A stretch of DNA of 64,000 nt from a virus. The position numbers were made by a program, and so were the translations under genes. Each line of letters starts with the position of its first letter. Positions within the stretch are counted from its first letter, which is position 1. Shown here piece after piece: positions 3,205 to 20,411 of the stretch. The notes beneath the pieces are model-generated. The model did not search any database and was not told where the DNA came from. It saw nothing but the letters and a program-made list of their open reading frames with translations. Location of the stretch: the IMG/VR virus record IMGVR_UViG_3300035698_006513, one strand, 5' to 3'.

Positions 3205-3969
3205 TTAGGGTGTGCGTCTTGATAACTCACGTTGGGACATGGTTACCAGCTGTCTGCGTATCTGAGATACCTTAGACTCACCTATGGATAGTGACTTTGC
3301 GATTTGCTGTCCGTTTTTACCAGACAGCAAAAGATCCAGTACCTTTCGCTTCTGCTCATCTTTAGGACCAGACAATTGGAACTTCAGCTCAGAAACTACC
3401 TTGTCATCTTTAGGTATGTCTACTGAGACATTTTCCTGAATGACACTTCCTGTTCCTGGGGCAGACATACGTAAGTCTCTAGCCATATCCTGCACATGAC
3501 TTAATCTCCACCCTAGATGTTCTGCAAGCTGAGTCTCGTTCGGCTCAAATCCCTTCTCGGCCTCAAAGTCGTCAATTCCATTATTGTACATGGTTATCTT
3601 AGACCATCCTCGATGCTCAGGTATCCTTATATTACCTTGGCGCTCCTGGATGAACCTTCTCGAGTGGTTCATCACACCATTAGTAACATGTGTGAATAAA
3701 GCAGCTCCTGCTTTATGGGAGGGATCCCAAGTCTGCAGACCTTGTATCGCACCTTCCACAGCGCGAGAACGAATTGTACTCTCTGGAATATCGGTCTTTC
3801 CCCCGTACGAAGACACAAACCTGTGTACCGCAGGCATAGCGACTGTACTCAGTAATGGCTCCCAGTGCGGATTAGATTCGCTTCCAGATTCTTCTGTACT
3901 CTCTTTCCAATTCTTCCATAGCTGCAGATCGCGGTCCTTCCTAGGACCAGACAATTTTTCTTGACTCAT
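3205..3969 (-). CDS. Phage-encoded sigma-70 family factor (FliA/SigB-like)
   Basis: Region 2 (GAIQGLQTWDPSHKAGAALFTH), NIRIP, region 3 (GFEPNETQLAEHLGW), region 4 HTH (QQIAKSLSIGESKVSQIRR). Confidence 0.85.
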   Translation of the reverse strand: MSQEKLSGPRKDRDLQLWKNWKESTEESGSESNPHWEPLLSTVAMPAVHRFVSSYGGKTDIPESTIRSRAVEGAIQGLQTWDPSHKAGAALFTHVTNGVMNHSRRFIQERQGNIRIPEHRGWSKITMYNNGIDDFEAEKGFEPNETQLAEHLGWRLSHVQDMARDLRMSAPGTGSVIQENVSVDIPKDDKVVSELKFQLSGPKDEQKRKVLDLLLSGKNGQQIAKSLSIGESKVSQIRRQLVTMSQRELSRRTP

Positions 3970-11800: not shown

Positions 11801-12278
11801 TGTGCCTGGACATGATACGATTGGAGTCTTGTTGGAACCGGGCTCCTCTATAAATAGCTGAACCTGCAGCAGAAACTGCTTTGTACCCGAGATACTGTGG
11901 GGCAAACGCAGCAGCCCCTGCTAACAAAGACCCGCCTATACCACGTGCCCCTACAGAACCAATGGCGCTAGCGTACTTACCTGCTCCCCATAATGATTTG
12001 GCATCTGCGTAGTTAGCACTAGAGGTCAGTCCGCTCCACGCACCTTTGATACCTGATATACCTGCGCCGAAGGCCATACTGCCCCCCACGATACCTCCCA
12101 TAACACTGACTCCGCCCATACCAACCATAGTACCAGCAGCTTTACTTGCTATACCGTATGAGTACGGATCATTATCTCCGTGCCTAAATGATCCAGTTGC
12201 CTGCCTACCGTATATTGAGGGCATGTCATGTCTGGGGTATGAGCCTACTCGTGCCGCAATTTGTTCGCTAGTAATCAT
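8805..12278 (-). CDS. Tail tape measure protein
   Basis: 1157 aa, Ala/Gly/Met/Ser-rich, helical; precedes baseplate-like genes; GGAGG RBS. Confidence 0.75.
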   Translation of the reverse strand: MITSEQIAARVGSYPRHDMPSIYGRQATGSFRHGDNDPYSYGIASKAAGTMVGMGGVSVMGGIVGGSMAFGAGISGIKGAWSGLTSSANYADAKSLWGAGKYASAIGSVGARGIGGSLLAGAAAFAPQYLGYKAVSAAGSAIYRGARFQQDSNRIMSRHMRFQNNSSSRTGFGASTEQMRGVSQMVTKMADKDSLRSRDELMRVMDKLGQSDFFQSTTSVDKFSGKFKKLVKTLTHMARSFGTSLEEAVPLMAAMKHSGIYSNKAQMQTARQIRMSGLSPQMAMSAMQGGAAIGRASGGHGGAAAEGTLTMMRQLRSMTQMKGIGKRTSNLMTEITGGQTGEQAMASTSQRMSALTLKFLKGPLGRMALAGLANKDMTGMDGGSMELLLNKRMSLSELRKRGFKNTASMGNKAKFVNREGDLRTAFLKQGGMTGMASLVHSAFRSKILKGSSNADIQELIMSRFTGGNRREAQLLQTAMQKLPQMRRDMTRAGIRQGDLHYRAYMGRERFSGDAIKRRAGSFMRRTFSRPLERLGQNIYSGLNDSFRGMIDDMTGTTSAHVTGQAASSFHKAAGGSASAMSDLKRRIGVGDGRPSAGLDLQRRRGTVDSLRDFGIDSSLSGSLPMSIIGVAIQGLVGKRRNDLGDNLHQMIGTNTLKGYGAQQRSMGKQGDLAIIHRTDARGRLMQSNGDDNRISQALVISKSQLHRVISLEKRRASGQRAAEIVRKFTDPKDKSAANKAAAMIRTNIINNSDVMNKLRNASPSERRQIMRKEFRKIAKPGTSVGKWVNRIAGDNEYKGVGAGAAQNQAMDDAINVAETALQKVGIDSQSRYVSGDMGDSYNTVKAAQAAQKDALDALGWAGRGKSVGDAAQYLTGGGIDERKFLQNSDLFKSENLISNTVMRHAAGGMKLTKAQENAKDRIIGSKGGEMNIGGHTLQENQVDMLRNILQRAPESGALGGLFGKSFTKEKYKKWRDSIHAQNQIGIATQVNRFGAGAVRALKGMKNPLASKLTDFAESLTTVRSKADIIGLAGGDKFGVIAEDFSSLGKKKQGEMLSQLRKRGSFGSAISGALQAYITKDGTNEEKRKAAGSTLLSTAVGKGKVTVGARKSLDNALTVWNDYVRANQRFVDAVSVALKDKDLAGISASLKSKRKVTT

Positions 12279-12372
12279 TATTACCTCCGTTTTACCTGAC
12301 TATACCACACAAAATACGGGTCCGGTAACGCGTATTTGGCATAAGAATACAGTAAGAATACGATAACAATCA

Positions 12373-13173
12373 ATGGAGGTAAAGGATATGTTGAGTATTG
12401 CCGCTGCGAGTCTCGTCACCGCAGTGGCGTTGCCACTGTATAGGTGGTGGCAGAGTGACAGGACCGAAACCAGCTCCCTGCTTCGTGCAGGTAGCGCTGT
12501 CGTCCCCGCTTTGGGCGTGGCGACAACCGTCGTGGGATATTATGAGCACATGGCTCAGATGGTTGAAGCATCTGAGCGGATGGAACTGAAGCTTCTTCGC
12601 CAGAAGGGTGAGGAAGTAGAAGTAGTACACACCATTATGGTGCCGCAAGGCATCGTGGACATGCTGGGGAGAGCTGTCATCCATACCGCGTTCGCAGGTA
12701 TGGATGAGGAGAGTGAGGAGCGAACTTTAGTTTGGGGGAGAAAGGGATGGGCACTGTCAGAGGAGGAAATAGAACTCCTCCTCGAATGGTTCCGAAGCAA
12801 CCTAATGCAAAGAAAAGACTTAGTCTTGCAGGCTACTATAGCCATCACAAGACTATTCTCTGCATTGGGTAAAAAAGCACTGAATCGTTCTATCGAAGTA
12901 ATGGTGCCCCATCTTCTGGATGCGTACGGAGTACCGGAAGCGGATGTACGTAGAGCAGTGGCATCAGGGCTGCTCGCCAATTCCAAGGATGGTCAGAAGG
13001 CCATCATAGAACACAGATCAGCTGCCATCGAAAACCTTGAGAACAAGGTTTTCGCTATGCAGGCAAACCTCTGTGGAGAAACTGTGGACGCAATGTCCGC
13101 AGCGAAGCGAAAGGTCGATAGTCTAGATATGTCTATGCTCGTATTGAGCATAGAAGATTCTAGACCGCAGTAA
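12373..13173 (+). CDS. Hypothetical membrane-anchored helical protein
   Basis: N-terminal hydrophobic segments; preceded by GGCATAAG motif and followed by terminator. Confidence 0.7.
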   Translation: MEVKDMLSIAAASLVTAVALPLYRWWQSDRTETSSLLRAGSAVVPALGVATTVVGYYEHMAQMVEASERMELKLLRQKGEEVEVVHTIMVPQGIVDMLGRAVIHTAFAGMDEESEERTLVWGRKGWALSEEEIELLLEWFRSNLMQRKDLVLQATIAITRLFSALGKKALNRSIEVMVPHLLDAYGVPEADVRRAVASGLLANSKDGQKAIIEHRSAAIENLENKVFAMQANLCGETVDAMSAAKRKVDSLDMSMLVLSIEDSRPQ

Positions 13174-13210
13174 CGAAATCCATATCCTCCTCCTATGGAT
13201 TTCGTTTCTT
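13172..13210 (+). terminator. Rho-independent terminator
   Basis: 13-bp perfect inverted repeat AACGAAATCCATA / TATGGATTTCGTT with T-rich tail. Confidence 0.75.
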
Positions 13211-13259
13211 AGCATATTGACTTACCTAGGGTAACTGTACGAAAATATCCGACATTACT

Positions 13260-13664
13260 ATGGAGGTGTACATGATACATTTTATGGCGGGTTTACAGAT
13301 CACTGATGTCACATCATATCTTATCGCTTCTGGGTCATTAGCGTTAGCCGTATTGTTTATACGTAAGTGGATAAACCGTATAGACAAGCGCGTAGACACA
13401 GCAGACGCGGCACTGAAGAGTGCTAAAGTTGCTACAGATGACCTACAGAGTGAAGTAGATGGGTTGAAAGCAGAGGTGGCTACACTAAGAGACGAGATTG
13501 TGCTTAAGGAGGCTACTGCGAAACTGGAAGGGAAAGTTGACGTTATTACGGGATTGGTATCGAATGCTACGAAAGTAAACCATGACCTGATGCGTGAGCA
13601 GATAGACAGTGTTCGCAGAGAGTTTCAGCGAAGTCTCGAAGAGGATAAAAATGCCAAATCTTGA
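13260..13664 (+). CDS. Single-TM coiled-coil protein (holin-like or kinase partner)
   Basis: TM YLIASGSLALAVLFI followed by about 90 aa of heptads. Confidence 0.65.
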   Translation: MEVYMIHFMAGLQITDVTSYLIASGSLALAVLFIRKWINRIDKRVDTADAALKSAKVATDDLQSEVDGLKAEVATLRDEIVLKEATAKLEGKVDVITGLVSNATKVNHDLMREQIDSVRREFQRSLEEDKNAKS

Positions 13665-14409
13665 TTCGTGCCCATCAAAAGATTTGATAATTACTGCGAG
13701 AACCCGGCCACTAAGTCCCGAAGAGAGAGACTGTGTAAACAGTTGTCAGTTTGGTGATATAGCAGAGCAATTTGTAAGTATCACACACGACCTAAAGTCG
13801 CCACTACGACACATATCATACTACTTGAATATGGCGATAGAGAGGGCTACAGAAGTAGAGCCAGATACGCAGTTACTAGATTATCTACTGAAGGGTGATG
13901 AGACTATCGACTCGGCATTACGACTCATCAGTAACTTGATGGAGTACTTCGACCCTAAAAGGGGTAAGGATACTTTTAGGATGAACTCGGTGCTAAGAGA
14001 GGCAATTACGTTACAAAACGGCAGCATGGATCGAACCGGAGCAAAAATAAGCATACCTGATGAAGATGTTTATGTGGAATTCAACAGAAAGCATTTGATA
14101 CGCATCTTGTCTAATCTGATTAACAACTCACTAAAGTATAAACATCCCGACCGCGAACCTCGTATAAACATATCTACGTCCAGCTGTGACGACAGGCTAA
14201 CTATCCGATACCAAGATAACGGTATCGGTATTAGCAAGGAACACTGGGAATGGGTATTTGAAATGTTCATGCGGGGTAATCACGATCAAGATGGTTCAGG
14301 GTTAGGTTTAGCACTATGTAAGAAGTTGCTAAAAAAAGAGGGCGGGGACATACGCATATCTGACTCAAGTGATGCAGGCACCACGTTCGAGTTCTTTATC
14401 CCAAAATAG
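13651..14409 (+). CDS. Histidine kinase (HisKA + HATPase_c) without a sensor domain
   Basis: H box THDLKSPL, N box NLINNSLKY, G1 DNGIGI, F box VFEMF, G2 GSGLGLA; GAGGA RBS before ATG 13651. Confidence 0.93.
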   Translation: MPNLDSCPSKDLIITARTRPLSPEERDCVNSCQFGDIAEQFVSITHDLKSPLRHISYYLNMAIERATEVEPDTQLLDYLLKGDETIDSALRLISNLMEYFDPKRGKDTFRMNSVLREAITLQNGSMDRTGAKISIPDEDVYVEFNRKHLIRILSNLINNSLKYKHPDREPRINISTSSCDDRLTIRYQDNGIGISKEHWEWVFEMFMRGNHDQDGSGLGLALCKKLLKKEGGDIRISDSSDAGTTFEFFIPK

Positions 14410-14419
14410 GAGATGGCCT

Positions 14420-14836
14420 GTGACTCGACCTATACTCAAGATACTTATAGTGGATGATAGTCCCGTGGATGCAGATATGGTATGCAAGGCGCTGGATGCT
14501 ATAGATGTTGCAATTAAAACGGTTGTACACAACAGCGGATTATCAGCAATAGAATATCTGAACACAACAGAGGAATTGCCTAATCTGGTGTTACTAGATT
14601 TGCACATGCCTCCGCCGAACGGTATGGAAGTGTTAAGACAAATACGGAAGGATACGAAACTGCAGTCTATACCTGTAATCATGCTCAGTGGAACACACAC
14701 TGACGATGTGATCCGAGATGCCTATGCGCTAAACATAAACGCGTACGTAGTGAAACCTGGTAGTTACCGCGCGTTTATGCGAGTCGTAAAGTGCATAGCT
14801 GACTTCTGGCTATGCACCGATATACGACTCCCTTAA
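14420..14836 (+). CDS. Stand-alone receiver-domain response regulator (Rcp1/CheY-like)
   Basis: ILIVDD, LLDLHMP (phospho-Asp), IPVIMLS, YVVKP, C-terminal FWL as in phytochrome-linked Rcp1 proteins. Confidence 0.93.
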   Translation: MTRPILKILIVDDSPVDADMVCKALDAIDVAIKTVVHNSGLSAIEYLNTTEELPNLVLLDLHMPPPNGMEVLRQIRKDTKLQSIPVIMLSGTHTDDVIRDAYALNINAYVVKPGSYRAFMRVVKCIADFWLCTDIRLP

Positions 14837-15369
14837 CTAGCTACTAATGTTACCTCCTCCTTCCGGTACATCCCTACTTTTTTAAGAGACACACCCGAAC
14901 TTATAATCTTGGATACAGTATTGAGGGCCTCCCCCCTAGTTCTTCTCCAAAGCATTCTATCTGTCCCCCCTTTAGGGTGTACGACAAGATAGCTCGCCAT
15001 CTCGGGTACGGAAATACCTTGTACTTCCGCCCTGCGTTTTCTTTCTTCAAACAGCTCATCAGTCAGTGCTGTGCGCACCACGAAATCACCTCCGTACCTG
15101 TCATCCTTTGTGATGATCAGGTGCGCACGCTTCTTCAGATTTGGATTTTCCAGCACTGCTCTATACAGATAGGGGTCATCTCCTAACAGAGGACAATCAT
15201 TTTTGCCCTCTTCCTTTGTAATTTCCGCCACGGATGCCTCCGCAGCCAGGTCTCTGATTTGTTGGTCGGTGATGTCAAACGCACCACATCTGTCTTCAGC
15301 CTTAAGCTGGGACAGTGCATGGGCAGTTACGCCTACAATCATACTAGTATATGCTTGTTCCTTGCACAT
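14833..15369 (-). CDS. Hypothetical protein
   Basis: AGGAG RBS and GGTATAAG motif upstream. Confidence 0.7.
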   Translation of the reverse strand: MCKEQAYTSMIVGVTAHALSQLKAEDRCGAFDITDQQIRDLAAEASVAEITKEEGKNDCPLLGDDPYLYRAVLENPNLKKRAHLIITKDDRYGGDFVVRTALTDELFEERKRRAEVQGISVPEMASYLVVHPKGGTDRMLWRRTRGEALNTVSKIISSGVSLKKVGMYRKEEVTLVAS

Positions 15370-15491
15370 ATTACTCCTATACTTACCCGTCGGATTCTTA
15401 TACCTATAATTCGTCTATTTCTATTATAAGTGTAATTGTATATATTACACACACACTACGTTCCTATTATATAACATGAAGGAGACTCGAT

Positions 15492-16292
15492 ATGTACTTA
15501 ACCATCCCCAAGGGAATTGATTTTAACACCGAGCACGGCTTCTTGTCACTACTCCCATCCGAAGAAAAGTTGGACATGTGGCAGCTCGTTCAGCGAGAAA
15601 AGATGTTACGGCAGTACCGAAACAGAGAACCGTACGCATGGACAGGTGGACACGATGGCTGCACGGAAGACCATTACTATCGTGCGTACAATATACTCAA
15701 AGACCACGGAAGAGACGGTGTTTTCTGTTGTGGCCTGTCGCTAGAAAATCTGTTCATGTCACACAAAGAGTGGATGGGGCAGGACTTCGAGTCAGACATC
15801 GACCTAACCCTCAAACAGATGAAGGAGATCAAAGCGTATTTCTTTGTATATAGAGACGCGGCACGTACGTATGTAGAAGGTTCGGGTAGAGGTATCGAGT
15901 ATATGGGACGTATGCTAAAACGAAGATGGGATGAAGCCAAGCAAAAAAGTCCATCAGATTATGGCGAGAGTTTCGCTGAGGATGCTGGTCTTGATTTCAA
16001 ATATCACACTGACCCTTATAAGGCGAAGTTCGGAGCATACGTACAAATCCAGAATGAGCCAGATCTACTTAAAGACCCAATGGGGCACGCTGGAGTATTC
16101 GTGGGATTAGAGCAGCGCACCTCAAGTAGTGGGCAACAATACGATGCTATCCGGATATTCCAAGCTCGCGGACAAGCTGACTACGGAATGGAGTCAGGTG
16201 TAAATTTCGGATGGTTCAAGATAGGCAAGACGAGTAAGAACTCTAGATATACGCGTAAATTCCACTTTGGGGAAATTAGCGAAGGAGGATGA
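15492..16292 (+). CDS. Putative NlpC/P60-CHAP-like Cys/His peptidase (candidate endolysin)
   Basis: Y-x-W...GVFCCGL (Cys) and GHAGVFVG (His) followed by beta strand IFQA; adjacent 2-TM protein. Confidence 0.55.
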   Translation: MYLTIPKGIDFNTEHGFLSLLPSEEKLDMWQLVQREKMLRQYRNREPYAWTGGHDGCTEDHYYRAYNILKDHGRDGVFCCGLSLENLFMSHKEWMGQDFESDIDLTLKQMKEIKAYFFVYRDAARTYVEGSGRGIEYMGRMLKRRWDEAKQKSPSDYGESFAEDAGLDFKYHTDPYKAKFGAYVQIQNEPDLLKDPMGHAGVFVGLEQRTSSSGQQYDAIRIFQARGQADYGMESGVNFGWFKIGKTSKNSRYTRKFHFGEISEGG

Positions 16293-16293
16293 T

Positions 16294-16851
16294 ATGAGTA
16301 AGTTTTCTCTCGGAGGACTCATGAACGCTCTTATAGGAGAACCGAGGGACTCTACAGGTAGACATAATAATATGTTCTTCTTATTCGTGCTGGCGTTTCT
16401 TGTTATGATCGTCGCATTTATGGGAGCGATCTTTTATAGGACATCCATATATATCATAGACCTAAGATGTCCCGTAGCTTCCGCAACATCCACCACTACT
16501 ACAAGCAAAAAACCAACAAGATCGGAAAGAAGAAGAACGAGACTAGTAAATAAGGGGTCTAACGCTAGTACACGTAGGTACAAGGTGAGCTGCTCAGACA
16601 AGTCAATCTATATCAATGCTACGCTGCAGCCGCCACCTACGTTACCAGACGCCTTCTGGTATGTCATGCTAGCTGTGTTTATGTTCTTAGGTATCATATA
16701 CGCAGTAGTGAGACACCCCTCCACACAGAAATTTGGAGTCGATATGGTGTACGCGTATAAAGGTGTACCTAGATCTGGTGTAGAATCTGCAAAACAGACC
16801 TCCGGACTGCAACCTCCCCCCACAGAAATACCTCAATCAGATCAACACTAA
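16294..16851 (+). CDS. Two-TM membrane protein (holin-like)
   Basis: TMs FFLFVLAFLVMIVAFMGAIF and FWYVMLAVFMFLGIIYAVV; AAGGAGG RBS. Confidence 0.55.
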   Translation: MSKFSLGGLMNALIGEPRDSTGRHNNMFFLFVLAFLVMIVAFMGAIFYRTSIYIIDLRCPVASATSTTTTSKKPTRSERRRTRLVNKGSNASTRRYKVSCSDKSIYINATLQPPPTLPDAFWYVMLAVFMFLGIIYAVVRHPSTQKFGVDMVYAYKGVPRSGVESAKQTSGLQPPPTEIPQSDQH

Positions 16852-16965
16852 AGACGCCATCCACTACCTCAGAACATTTACATTGAAATCTGCACCATAG
16901 TACATTTTACGTCTTTCCTCTTGCGCAAGTATGCGCGTTTATTAACCGACAGGCGGGACAATATC

Positions 16966-18825
16966 ATGCAATATTCGGCACTTACTGGTTCAAGTTTGCT
17001 GTCAGACCTAATCGTGTATCTCAAGTACGGACGTTACTTACCTCATGCCCAAAGGAGAGAGGTATGGGATGAGATATGTGATCGTGGCGGAGACATGCAC
17101 GCAGACCGATGGCCTCATATAGAAGATGACATACGGGAGGCGTTTCAGGCGAAGAAGGAGAAGAAAATTCTATCGTCTATGCGTGCAGCGCAGTTTGCAG
17201 GAGCAGCTGCGGTCAAAAAACCCAATAGACTATATAACTGCGCGTATTTGCCTATGTTGGATGTAAAGGCGTTCAGTGAGTTATTTTACAATCTATTGTG
17301 TGGATGCGGTGTTGGTTACAGTGTGCAGAGTAGGCACATACAACAACTCCCTGCCATAAACGGCACCAGTACCAAAGAATACGCATACATCGTACCAGAC
17401 ACCATTGAGGGTTGGTGTGATTCCTTGCTCTCCCTCATAGAAGCTTATACCTACTGTCTACATAAACCTATATTCGACTTCTCTAAAATACGACCAGAGG
17501 GTTCCCCACTCATAACCAGCGGAGGAAGGGCACCAGGTCCCGATCCGCTTAAACTGGCGCTGCAAAGATGCGAACTTATTCTAAGAGGTGCTAGGGGACG
17601 TAAGCTGAGTTCTCTGGAAGTACACGACATATGTTGCCATGTAGCTGACGCCGTTCATGCGGGTGGAATACGAAGAGCAGCTATGATCGCGTTCTTTGAC
17701 CGTTGTGACACAGCGATGCTTACGTGTAAATCTGACACTTGGTGGGAGGACCACCCACAACGAGGTAGATCAAACAACTCTGCCGTATTTGTACGAGGAG
17801 AAGTTACACAACAAGACTTTATGGACTTCTGGGAAATCGTAGTAAGTAACCAGACAGGTGAGCCTGGAATATTCTGGACTAACGACCCAGATGATCTCGC
17901 CAATCCCTGTGTCGAGATCTCACTACCTGAGTACGGTTTCTGTAACCTAACAACAGTGAATGGTAGTAATTGTGTAGACGAGGCGGACTTTTTTCACCGT
18001 GTGAGAATGGCAGCGAGAATAGGTACACTCCAGGCTGGGTGGACAGCATTTCCCTATCTGAGACCTCAGTGGCAGAAGTCCGCAGAGAAACTTGCGTTAC
18101 TAGGTGTATCCATTACAGGCATCACAGACGGAAACGTGCAACAATACGACTTGAGAAAGGCAGCCCAAATCGTACTAGACGAAAACGCGTACATAGCTGG
18201 TAAACTGGATATGAATCTGGCGCATCGCACCACAACAGTGAAACCAGAAGGCACTGGATCATTAGTGCTTGAGTCAAGCAACGGTGTCCACACACGAGAA
18301 GCGGAGCACTACTTTAAATGTCTGCGTATAGGTAAAAATGAACCTGTATACCCATACCTACTACAGAACCTACCGGATCTTGTTGAGGACCTCGAGTCTG
18401 ACCCACGTAGTATGGCTATTGTACGTATGCCTGTAGCAACCAAAGGTAAACTTACCAAAAGTCAAGAGAATCCACTACAACTACTAGAGAGAGTGAAGGA
18501 TCTACACACCAGATGGGTACGTCCTGGACACAGAGAAGGACTGAACACACATAATATTTCGTGCACAGTTTCCATCAAAGATGGTGAATGGGCTGAAGTA
18601 GGTAAGTGGATGTGGGAAAATAGGGATTCTTATAATGGTTTGGCTACATTCCCTTGGTATGGTGGTACCCACAGACAGTTACCAATAAGCCCTTGTACAG
18701 AAACGGAATATAACAACGCCACAAGACAGCTAAGAAAATTGGACCTCCGCGAGGTAACAGAACTTGAGAACAATGTCAAGTTCGAGGCGGAGTCCGCATG
18801 TGCTGGTGGTATGTGTGAGCTATAG
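16966..18825 (+). CDS. nrdJ: Class II (B12-dependent) ribonucleotide reductase
   Basis: YNCAY, GCGVGYSV, GGIRRAAMI, NPCVEI, FCNL, TTVKPEGT, C-terminal ACAGGMCEL; no small subunit gene nearby. Confidence 0.92.
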   Translation: MQYSALTGSSLLSDLIVYLKYGRYLPHAQRREVWDEICDRGGDMHADRWPHIEDDIREAFQAKKEKKILSSMRAAQFAGAAAVKKPNRLYNCAYLPMLDVKAFSELFYNLLCGCGVGYSVQSRHIQQLPAINGTSTKEYAYIVPDTIEGWCDSLLSLIEAYTYCLHKPIFDFSKIRPEGSPLITSGGRAPGPDPLKLALQRCELILRGARGRKLSSLEVHDICCHVADAVHAGGIRRAAMIAFFDRCDTAMLTCKSDTWWEDHPQRGRSNNSAVFVRGEVTQQDFMDFWEIVVSNQTGEPGIFWTNDPDDLANPCVEISLPEYGFCNLTTVNGSNCVDEADFFHRVRMAARIGTLQAGWTAFPYLRPQWQKSAEKLALLGVSITGITDGNVQQYDLRKAAQIVLDENAYIAGKLDMNLAHRTTTVKPEGTGSLVLESSNGVHTREAEHYFKCLRIGKNEPVYPYLLQNLPDLVEDLESDPRSMAIVRMPVATKGKLTKSQENPLQLLERVKDLHTRWVRPGHREGLNTHNISCTVSIKDGEWAEVGKWMWENRDSYNGLATFPWYGGTHRQLPISPCTETEYNNATRQLRKLDLREVTELENNVKFEAESACAGGMCEL

Positions 18826-19342
18826 TGACCGTCATATGCTTATTAGATAGAATTAGCCATTTATATCCCAACTATCGGGTATAAGATAATAGAGAAGCAC
18901 TACACTAATAATCCTTCTCTCTGGCCACAACGTAACATCCAGTTGCTAATGTTACGATATACATGGAGAGCTATCATGCTCAAATGTAATGTATACCTTC
19001 TCAGTGCTGGCCTCGTAACTGGTTTCCTCTGTTCTTCCGAAGAGGAAGGGTGGGGCATCCTGCGAGAACGCTTCGCAGGACAAAGTGCTCAGTTTTGGGC
19101 CGAAGTAGACATCTACTTCGTATCCCAGTAATTCTGTGTCCATAACGTAACACCCGTCTTAGTAGTAGATGATGGGTGTTACATAACCATGATAGGAGTA
19201 TACATCATGGCTAACAAAAACTGTGTCCTTCTCTCCACTACACTTCTCCTCGGCGACGGTCTCATATACACGTCTCTCCACAGTCAGATGGTGGTCTTCT
19301 GCTAGCTTACCAATAAGCTCTCTTACCCTTCCTACTCTTCTC

Positions 19343-19588
19343 TCAAGTGCCATCGTGCACATCTACATACTCCCATACCCAATGGTCATCGAGGAAAATT
19401 TCCTCGAACAAACCAATTAGCTCCGCTTGAGTGGTGTCATCTGTGTGTAACTCGATCACGCTGCCCTCAACAATTGCACCAACAAGATAAAACAAATCCG
19501 CTCCAATAACGGAGAATGTCTCAGTGGTGTCCATAAGCGCTTCGTAAAGCTCCTTAATATGTATCAATTTTTCTGCGGATTCGTACAT
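19343..19588 (-). CDS. Small acidic hypothetical protein
   Basis: AGGAG RBS; 81 aa. Confidence 0.6.
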   Translation of the reverse strand: MYESAEKLIHIKELYEALMDTTETFSVIGADLFYLVGAIVEGSVIELHTDDTTQAELIGLFEEIFLDDHWVWEYVDVHDGT

Positions 19589-19685
19589 ACTTACAGTCTC
19601 CTAACAAGAGGTTAACTTTACTAATATAGAGGCAACGATTATGCCCCATATTAGTATAGCAGAGACGGTAGGCGATTTAAATCGC

Positions 19686-20411
19686 CTACCCATTGTTCGC
19701 CTCTTTCTTGTGTGAAGAGGATTCGCGTAGGATACGTAAAGACTCAACCGCACCGTATTTTAACTTGATGTAGTTAATCTGACTTCTTATCCCCCCAGAG
19801 TTTACGTGTCTCGCTTCTCTCTCAGCCGTATCACGAACATAATCCGCAAGGAGAATAGAGCTAGTCTCCTTGATCGCATCTTCCCACACTTCATTTGCTA
19901 CAGCACCCAGCATCGTACATTCGTCCTGCTCTGACCACACTCTGCGAATAAATGGGTCAATATATCCCAACCCAGACACCAACGGTGCACACTCAGACTT
20001 TGATGAGTAGCGTATACCATCACTAAAAGATACGTATCCAGATGAGTTTGGGTGGTCCACCTGTATGAGTGTAAAAGTCATATCGGGGTAGATACGAGAT
20101 ATGTTATCAAACGCTAATACAGGTACCGTATCTGCAATGAACTCAAAAGAAGTCTCCACTCTACCGTGTGTACATACCGCGATTTGGGCATTACGCACTT
20201 TAATATCATCAGCTACCCCCCACGCCTCCATTCTTGCCTGCGCAAAGTTGGACATAAGGAGGTGTTCCTTACTCATTGGGGACAGGCGAGCGAAAGTAAT
20301 ACCATTCCCCATCACTATTCCCTGTGTGGCCCCCTTGGGAATAGGATTGCTCAAGAATTTTTCTGTGTCTACTGCGGTTCCGTTCGTTCGCACTTGCATA
20401 CGTACAGTCAT
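19686..20411 (-). CDS. Hypothetical protein
   Basis: AAGGAG RBS supports ATG at 20411. Confidence 0.7.
   Translation of the reverse strand: MTVRMQVRTNGTAVDTEKFLSNPIPKGATQGIVMGNGITFARLSPMSKEHLLMSNFAQARMEAWGVADDIKVRNAQIAVCTHGRVETSFEFIADTVPVLAFDNISRIYPDMTFTLIQVDHPNSSGYVSFSDGIRYSSKSECAPLVSGLGYIDPFIRRVWSEQDECTMLGAVANEVWEDAIKETSSILLADYVRDTAEREARHVNSGGIRSQINYIKLKYGAVESLRILRESSSHKKEANNG

Follow-up and report, generated by a model that had tools for sequence, protein, structure and literature searches.

A stretch of 64,000 nucleotides from the IMG/VR virus record IMGVR_UViG_3300035698_006513, referred to here as the window, carries three co-oriented, closely packed genes on the + strand between 13.2 and 14.9 kb. 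Judged from their sequences, they form an intact, phage-resident signalling operon. The first gene, TMCC (13272-13664), encodes a single-pass membrane protein of 130 residues with a coiled coil of about 95 residues. The second, HK (13651-14409), encodes a class I histidine kinase of 252 residues, composed of DHp and CA domains only, without a sensor, and with His46 as phospho-acceptor. The third, RR (14420-14836), encodes a single-domain response regulator of 138 residues of the Rcp1/bacteriophytochrome type, in which Asp60 is the phospho-acceptor. One kinase and one receiver are all that the whole window contains. The best reading of this arrangement, which is proposed tentatively from sequences and structural models, is that of a two-chain, membrane-tethered kinase that feeds a bare receiver.

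Gene starts, boundaries and integrity of the operon

TMCC starts at the ATG at 13272, 5 nt after a GGAGG sequence. The preliminary description of this DNA, which was made from the letters and a list of open reading frames (ORFs), had placed the start at the ATG at 13260. The ORF list over-extends this gene (13260-13664) and its upstream neighbor (12373-13173) because in both an in-frame ATG is embedded in the gene's own Shine-Dalgarno sequence (ATGGAGGT...), with the real ATG following 4-7 nt later (12388 and 13272). Public assemblies call the 130-residue form of TMCC that starts at 13272, letter-for-letter, on 5 public contigs.

In the ORF list, the kinase begins at the GTG at 13609, in a frame that is open from 13606; from this an overlap of about 56 nt with TMCC had been described. 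The overlap is real and lies in the +1 frame, but it comprises 14 nt (13651-13664) of coding sequence, because the Shine-Dalgarno sequence AGAGGA is located 5 nt before the ATG at 13651 and the resulting 252-residue product is the form on record. The longer figure reflects the open frame only. RR starts at the GTG at 14420, which is 7 nt after AGGAG and 10 nt past the kinase stop, and the exact 138-residue protein is likewise on record.

The three genes are set apart from the gene upstream by a terminator-like hairpin (13169-13209, + strand), located directly after the stop of the membrane-protein gene at 12388-13173. The hairpin has a main stem of 13 bp, in which 13172-13184 pair with 13194-13206, a folding free energy of -15.9 kcal/mol and a z-score of -7.46. 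None of 200 shuffles folded equally well; the element was also detected as an inverted repeat, and its 3' side is T-rich (UUUCUU). At the other end lies a gene in convergent orientation, whose stop codon overlaps that of RR. The upstream hairpin, the packed and overlapping starts, and the convergent downstream gene make TMCC, HK and RR look like one unit. A sigma-70-like match (TTGACT-18-GAAAAT, 13217-13246, + strand; 9/12 consensus matches) lies between the hairpin and TMCC; it is weak and serves as a position marker only. It was set aside as a promoter call, such sites being found 5 times against 8.0 expected in shuffles.

The stretch is present in 14 salt-lake metagenome runs, and no RNA run was listed among the sequencing runs. 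Over 12300-16300, Logan contigs of four separately assembled runs agreed in every letter, without any indel. One of these runs, which was not flagged as a possible source, covers 12300-13849 and thus spans the junction of TMCC and HK. Gene calls in JGI, ENA and Logan assemblies include identical proteins of 130, 252 and 138 residues, on contigs of up to 124.7 kb. An assembly indel at 13600-13664 that hides one ordinary fused kinase, a concern of the preliminary description, was therefore not found in the contigs of the four runs or among these proteins; this check used assembled contigs, in which rare variants may be hidden.

In GC (guanine plus cytosine) content and synonymous codon usage, the three genes are like the other genes of the window, which marks them as residents rather than a chimeric join or a recent import. 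Elsewhere the window carries tail-fibre and tail-fibre-assembly families, a UvsX-like recombinase, a DNA methyltransferase, a sigma-like protein and two tRNAs. Some 30 other ORFs have almost no Pfam or PHROG matches; the remainder consists almost entirely of ORFans. By its gene content, the element is a phage; it is large, uncultured and from salt lakes.

Kinase, response regulator and membrane protein

On the evidence of its sequence and predicted fold, the kinase core is catalytically complete and lacks a sensor domain. The Pfam family HATPase_c was matched with 86.5 bits (cut-off 26.4), and HisKA with 23.5 bits, just below its cut-off of 26.9. In alignments of 13 and 63 sequences (12 and 62 relatives), the residues H46, N155/N159, D189-x-G191-x-G193, F203 and G217-x-G219 are invariant and G215 is nearly so. 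The protein thus has the features of a class I (HisKA-type) kinase, with an H-box His in a two-helix DHp domain and the N, G1, F and G2 boxes in a CA domain; the statement of the preliminary description that all catalytic boxes are present agrees with this result. It falls outside the sensor kinases, having no transmembrane segment and no further Pfam domain N-terminal to DHp.

The AlphaFold2 model of the kinase (mean predicted local distance difference test score, pLDDT, 84.8) contains a short helix (residues 10-18), two DHp helices (23-68 and 73-100) and the CA domain (107-251). Only about 22 residues precede the first DHp helix in this model. From the ATG at 13651 there are 45 residues before His46, and C7, C28 and C32 lie among them, as had been noted earlier; two more cysteines occur elsewhere in the kinase. 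The top Foldseek matches of the model were the kinase cores of HK853, ZraS, WalK/YycG and RpBphP2, with E-values of about 1e-16. By sequence, the best solved relative is the kinase domain of the bacteriophytochrome RpBphP2 (8f71, E 4.8e-23, 31% identity).

Relatives of similar length are 31-33% identical to the kinase, values of 37-42% being reached only in partial or short matches. The search among longer proteins yielded no fused or closer kinase, the maximum there being 38% identity. Metagenomes also contain small kinases of this subfamily that lack a sensor and stand alone (P0012, P0020 and P0036). The best relative of near length, P0001 from a Bacteroidetes metagenome-assembled genome, combines a short tail, a transmembrane segment, a coiled coil and the kinase in one chain of 307 residues. 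No equivalog-level match was found in NCBIfam. PADLOC detected no known defence system and none of its Detocs models matched; it gave weak generic matches only, to the candidate families PDC-M43B and PDC-M60B, and coiled-coil noise for TMCC.

The response regulator consists of one Response_reg domain (65.8 bits) and no other Pfam domain. Its best solved relatives are RtBRR (5ic5, 2.5e-23), AtRR1 (5brj), Rcp1 (1i3c/1jlk, 1.5e-20), RcpA (1k68) and DrRR (6xvu). Residues D12, D13, D60, S90 and K112 align with those of Rcp1, RtBRR and AtRR1, and the C-terminal F129-W130-L aligns with the FW of 5ic5, 5brj, 5te9 and Rcp1. A full active site, the absence of an output domain and a C-terminal aromatic-Trp motif place the protein with the Rcp1-type regulators, and its first description as Rcp1-like and output-less holds. 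An adjoining phytochrome kinase, which also belongs to that type, is missing: the adjacent kinase has no PAS-GAF-PHY region and resembles phytochrome kinases in its catalytic core only. In 5.8 billion clusters, the nearest sequences to the regulator were bare receivers of diverse bacteria with 44% identity. Taken together, the pair has the look of a catalytic module of the phytochrome type that lacks its photosensor.

TMCC has one hydrophobic segment (about residues 14-30) and contains no cysteine. Its N-terminal tail has no K or R, and five such residues were read in the segment RKWINRIDKR that follows the membrane segment; by the positive-inside rule, this predicts an N-out, C-in topology in which the long helix and its coiled coil face the cytoplasm. 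Heptad positions are occupied by L58, V62, L65, V69, L72 and I76, and AlphaFold2 modeled residues 5-129 as a single helix (pLDDT 81). The protein is not a member of DUF948 (PF06103), for which it scored 27.5 bits against the Pfam gathering cut-off of 37.2. It was also considered as an i-spanin of the lambda Rz type; this was rejected, because the positive charges after the membrane segment give a topology opposite to N-in/C-out, and no ORF with a lipobox (an o-spanin) was found in 12300-17000 on either strand.

Related cassettes and comparison systems

The 13-sequence kinase alignment was used for a pattern scan of IMG/VR, for which the 63-sequence alignment was too diverse, and 209 kinase-bearing contigs were confirmed. 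Among the best 80 of these 209 loci, a non-hybrid kinase adjoined a stand-alone receiver in 26, and 20 of the 26 receivers ended in an aromatic-Trp tail. Two layouts were seen. In the first (L003, L013, L022, L030), a kinase, a receiver and a receiver-containing protein of about 270 residues are followed, in this order, by a small coiled-coil protein with a single transmembrane segment, which is C-terminal in L003 and L013 but N-terminal and followed by the coiled coil, like TMCC, in L022 and L030. The second (L005, L007, L008, L011, L028, L029) begins with a fusion of about 300 residues, composed of a receiver, a long helical region and a C-terminal transmembrane segment, after which come a PAS kinase and then a receiver. 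Fusion proteins of this family (L005:4790-5695, L007:4715-5617, L008:1947-2870 and L028:4727-5608) share 46-77% mutual identity, and are directly followed by the PAS kinase and an Rcp1-type receiver. In one further locus, L002, a sensor-less kinase of 274 residues has no transmembrane partner.

These predicted viral cassettes resemble the present operon in that a kinase of the same subfamily adjoins a stand-alone receiver, and helical proteins held in the membrane by a single pass are common among them. They differ in that most of the kinases carry PAS domains and most cassettes include an extra receiver protein; in none is a transmembrane gene located directly upstream of the kinase. The neighbors of some cassettes look phage-like: thymidylate synthase, dihydrofolate reductase, M23 peptidase and exonuclease genes in L008, and a phage PDDEXK endonuclease in L030. 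The cassette records are not relatives of the present phage.

A deposited cyanophage, Microcoleus phage My-WqHQDG (OR578706.1, 88856-91946), carries a similar cassette between its primase and PIF1 helicase genes, with a transmembrane sensor kinase of 545 residues, an Rcp1-type receiver of 138 residues, a second receiver, and a helical protein of 179 residues with one transmembrane segment. It shares with the present operon the kinase subfamily, the Rcp1-type receiver (with a C-terminal WW-L motif), the one-segment helical protein and the organization in one overlapping operon. The kinase of My-WqHQDG, however, has an N-terminal transmembrane and sensor region, a second receiver is present, and identity is low (27% for the kinase and 30% for the receiver). 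Its helical protein, which does not resemble TMCC in sequence, has a C-terminal anchor and is encoded by the final gene of the operon.

Such pairs are very scarce among deposited phage records, and the matches were mostly gut-metagenome fragments or multi-contig deposits labelled as phage. The earlier view that complete kinase and regulator pairs are uncommon in phages is therefore correct for deposited records, but not for the predicted viral contigs of IMG/VR, in which cassettes recur. The one record inspected among these matches, L001 (MW462191.1, 20278-30784), labelled 'Bacteriophage sp.', contains CcmF, HtrA, GlnE, HigB and PleC-like genes and is evidently bacterial DNA, and the multi-contig 'phage' deposits Listeria LM 4-11-1, Acinetobacter MD-2021a and Staphylococcus SA 1306 Kay contain ordinary bacterial two-component genes.

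Among cellular systems, HK853-RR468 of Thermotoga maritima (2c2a, 3dge, 4jav) also combines a class I HisKA core with a stand-alone receiver, and in structure the kinase model matches HK853 best. The full-length HK853, however, has its own transmembrane and periplasmic sensor; the protein is cellular and about 20% identical to the present kinase. The pairs of Cph1-Rcp1 and the bacteriophytochromes (PMC8292422) share with the present pair the order of kinase and then regulator, an H-box of the SHDLxxPL type and an output-less receiver with an FW motif. Their kinases have their own PAS-GAF-PHY photosensor, and their receivers have an insertion of 5-7 residues before strand 3, which the present regulator lacks. 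In turn, the present pair, which is about 30-40% identical to them, is phage-encoded and preceded by a membrane coiled-coil gene.

Apart from the agr3 locus of the Clostridium difficile phage phiCDHM1 and one survey of jumbo phages, nothing relevant on phage-encoded kinase and regulator pairs was found in the literature that was searched. In phiCDHM1, the kinase AgrC, which is thought to act on host signalling, is encoded with AgrB and AgrD and without a response regulator (PMC3901668). AgrC, the only phage kinase that these searches found in print, is a peptide sensor that passes the membrane several times and belongs to a different class of kinases, whereas the present phage encodes a kinase and a regulator but no sensor. 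The jumbo-phage survey describes only a divergent receiver domain that is not of the two-component type.

Interpretation, neighboring genes and significance

In the two-chain reading, the 14-nt overlap and the coupled start would keep the amounts of TMCC and kinase in a constant ratio. TMCC would hold or regulate the kinase at the inner membrane, and the two chains together would constitute a minimal membrane kinase. The kinase dimer would autophosphorylate on His46 and pass the phosphate to Asp60 of the receiver. Because it has no output domain, the phosphorylated receiver would then act by protein contact on a target of the phage or the host, possibly at the membrane; lysis-like genes are located nearby. 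The partnership of TMCC and the kinase is supported by the coupling of their genes, the predicted cytoplasmic coiled coil, the one-chain layout of P0001 and the recurrence of membrane-anchored helical proteins in other viral cassettes. In LiaF-LiaS, SaeP/Q-SaeS and MzrA-EnvZ, the input or tuning of a kinase comes from a separate membrane protein of the same operon. Kinases of the LiaS, SaeS and EnvZ type are membrane proteins themselves, however, whereas the present kinase is fully soluble, and TMCC is not known to be related to the accessory proteins of these systems.

Several observations weigh against this reading. TMCC is linked to the kinase by position and architecture only. No homologues of TMCC were detected: an exhaustive phmmer search of 1.84 billion representative proteins returned the protein itself and two marginal coiled-coil matches, and no similarity was seen to the N-terminus of P0001 or to the membrane proteins of the other viral cassettes. 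Prolines at kinase residues 2, 8, 20 and 23, between the start of the kinase and the first DHp helix, would break a signalling helix, so that a rigid, continuous helical link between TMCC and the kinase is disfavoured. These prolines, together with the dissimilarity of TMCC to the N-terminus of P0001, also disfavour the recent splitting of one fused kinase. In favour of the reading, proteins with one transmembrane segment are enriched in the cassette runs of 22 IMG/VR kinase-receiver cassettes (12/65 against 10/147, Fisher p = 0.012), but the test used crude, naive ORF calls and a hydropathy threshold, and related contigs were counted. Moreover, the viral nature of the IMG/VR cassette contigs is predicted. 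Searches of five cassette records, which are 10-34% complete, detected no terminase, tail-sheath or gp23 family; the gp23 search was also empty in control genomes. Of the options offered in the preliminary description (a split kinase, a redox sensor or a phosphate sink), the split kinase nevertheless keeps the most support, which is of an architectural kind.

Less probable is that TMCC has no functional relation to its neighbors and that the kinase, soluble and independent of any signal, works with its receiver to override or drain a pathway of the host, by cross-phosphorylation of host regulators or as a phosphate sink for host kinases. A kinase without an input domain and a receiver without an output domain would suit this role. 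Single-domain receivers are established as sinks or shuttles, as in the CheY-type sinks, LovR and DivK. The sensor-less kinases of the same subfamily, which are found alone in metagenomes and without a transmembrane partner in L002, are consistent with it as well. However, identities of only 30-44% to known cellular proteins give no sign that the pair mimics one host system, and the translational coupling with TMCC is left unexplained. An account to which we give slightly less credence makes TMCC the output: the phosphorylated receiver would dock on the membrane coiled coil and switch a membrane event, such as lysis timing or exclusion. The six IMG/VR cassettes of the second layout, in which a receiver is fused to a helix and a C-terminal transmembrane segment near a same-subfamily kinase and an Rcp1-type receiver, supply evidence of the Rosetta-stone type for receivers that act on membrane-anchored helices, and lysis-like genes are found 0.7-2 kb downstream of the operon. 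Yet the fusion proteins share no sequence with TMCC, their cassettes include a second receiver that is absent from the present phage, and TMCC is coupled to the kinase gene rather than to the receiver gene.

Redox or metal sensing by the kinase through C7, C28 and C32 is improbable. Three cysteines do occur within the first 32 residues, and C28 and C32 are one helical turn apart at the N-terminal end of the first DHp helix; the redox option of the preliminary description gained no support beyond these cysteines themselves. Helical-wheel arithmetic would place C28 and C32 opposite the F34/I37/F41 core, which makes a disulfide across the dimer core unlikely. TMCC has no cysteine, two further kinase cysteines lie elsewhere, and the kinase homologues are too distant for the conservation of the cysteines to be judged. 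Least credible of all is a single fused membrane kinase, produced either through an assembly indel or by a programmed +1 frameshift at the TMCC stop. In its favour, the open kinase frame reaches back to 13606, and ribosomes slipping by +1 at TCT-TGA would pass from TMCC to kinase residue 5. The identical contigs of the four runs and the separate 130- and 252-residue proteins in JGI, ENA and Logan assemblies argue against an indel, and the strong Shine-Dalgarno sequence and ATG account for the kinase start. As for a frameshift, TCT to CTT is a poor slip with no slippery match, and the Shine-Dalgarno-like element is 13 nt away; in the prfB frameshift, this distance is 3 nt.

Beyond the operon, the convergent gene downstream (14833-15369, - strand) encodes an ORFan of 178 residues; its stop overlaps that of RR by 2 nt, and no terminator was found between the two genes. 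A protein of 266 residues is encoded at 15492-16292, with the Cys/His motifs FCCG and GHAGVF and with ESM Atlas leads to papain-like, CHAP, NlpC/P60, endolysin-like and C39 peptidases. The gene at 16267-16851 encodes a protein with two transmembrane segments and a loop rich in Ser, Thr and Pro. The two genes are possibly an endolysin/holin-like pair, as far as their sequences indicate, and the proximity to putative lysis genes pointed out earlier is kept as a lead only. At 16921-18825 lies a class II (B12-dependent) ribonucleotide reductase, which is 47-48% identical to proteins of Oceanospirillum phage vB_OsaM_PD0307, Vibrio phage VPs20 and Microcystis phage Mel-JY01, annotated as 'recombinase' in PD0307 and VPs20 and as 'hypothetical protein' in Mel-JY01.

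Upstream of the operon, the gene at 12388-13173 has the highest GC content of the genes compared (0.51). Its 261-residue product, found letter-for-letter in the ESM Atlas, has a hydrophobic N-terminus (one segment over the hydropathy threshold) and a helical-looking domain of about 200 residues; this membrane protein had no family match and no informative relative in the Atlas. Farther away, a protein of 254 residues (3205-3969, - strand) weakly matches phage RNA polymerase sigma factors (phrog_351, E 7e-6). No relatives of the phage or of the cassette were found when IMG/VR was scanned with single proteins, namely the kinase, the receiver and the 266-residue protein encoded downstream; megablast of 12000-20000 against deposited phages gave no match, and tblastn of the 982-residue virion protein gave none in phage records.

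Neither the kinase nor the regulator stands out within its known family. The unusual features are the setting in a phage, a kinase without a sensor, a regulator without an output domain, and the coupling of the pair to a membrane anchor. The theme extends beyond the window: comparable cassettes, identified by sequence, recur in predicted viral contigs of IMG/VR and in one deposited cyanophage record. A wider proposal, which we regard as doubtful, is that many lineages of large tailed phages carry a minimal phospho-relay composed of a kinase core, a bare Rcp1-type receiver and a coiled-coil protein anchored by a single membrane pass, that this relay controls a membrane event of the infection cycle, for example when lysis takes place, and that the window holds the most reduced version, with three genes.

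Two-component systems are generally seen as sensory devices of cells. A complete kinase-receiver pair that is kept by a phage, without sensor and output, and coupled to a membrane anchor suggests that viruses run a phosphorylation switch of their own during infection. With only three small proteins, the operon offers a compact system for work at the bench. If its target is a membrane step such as lysis, it would represent a new layer of phage decision-making.

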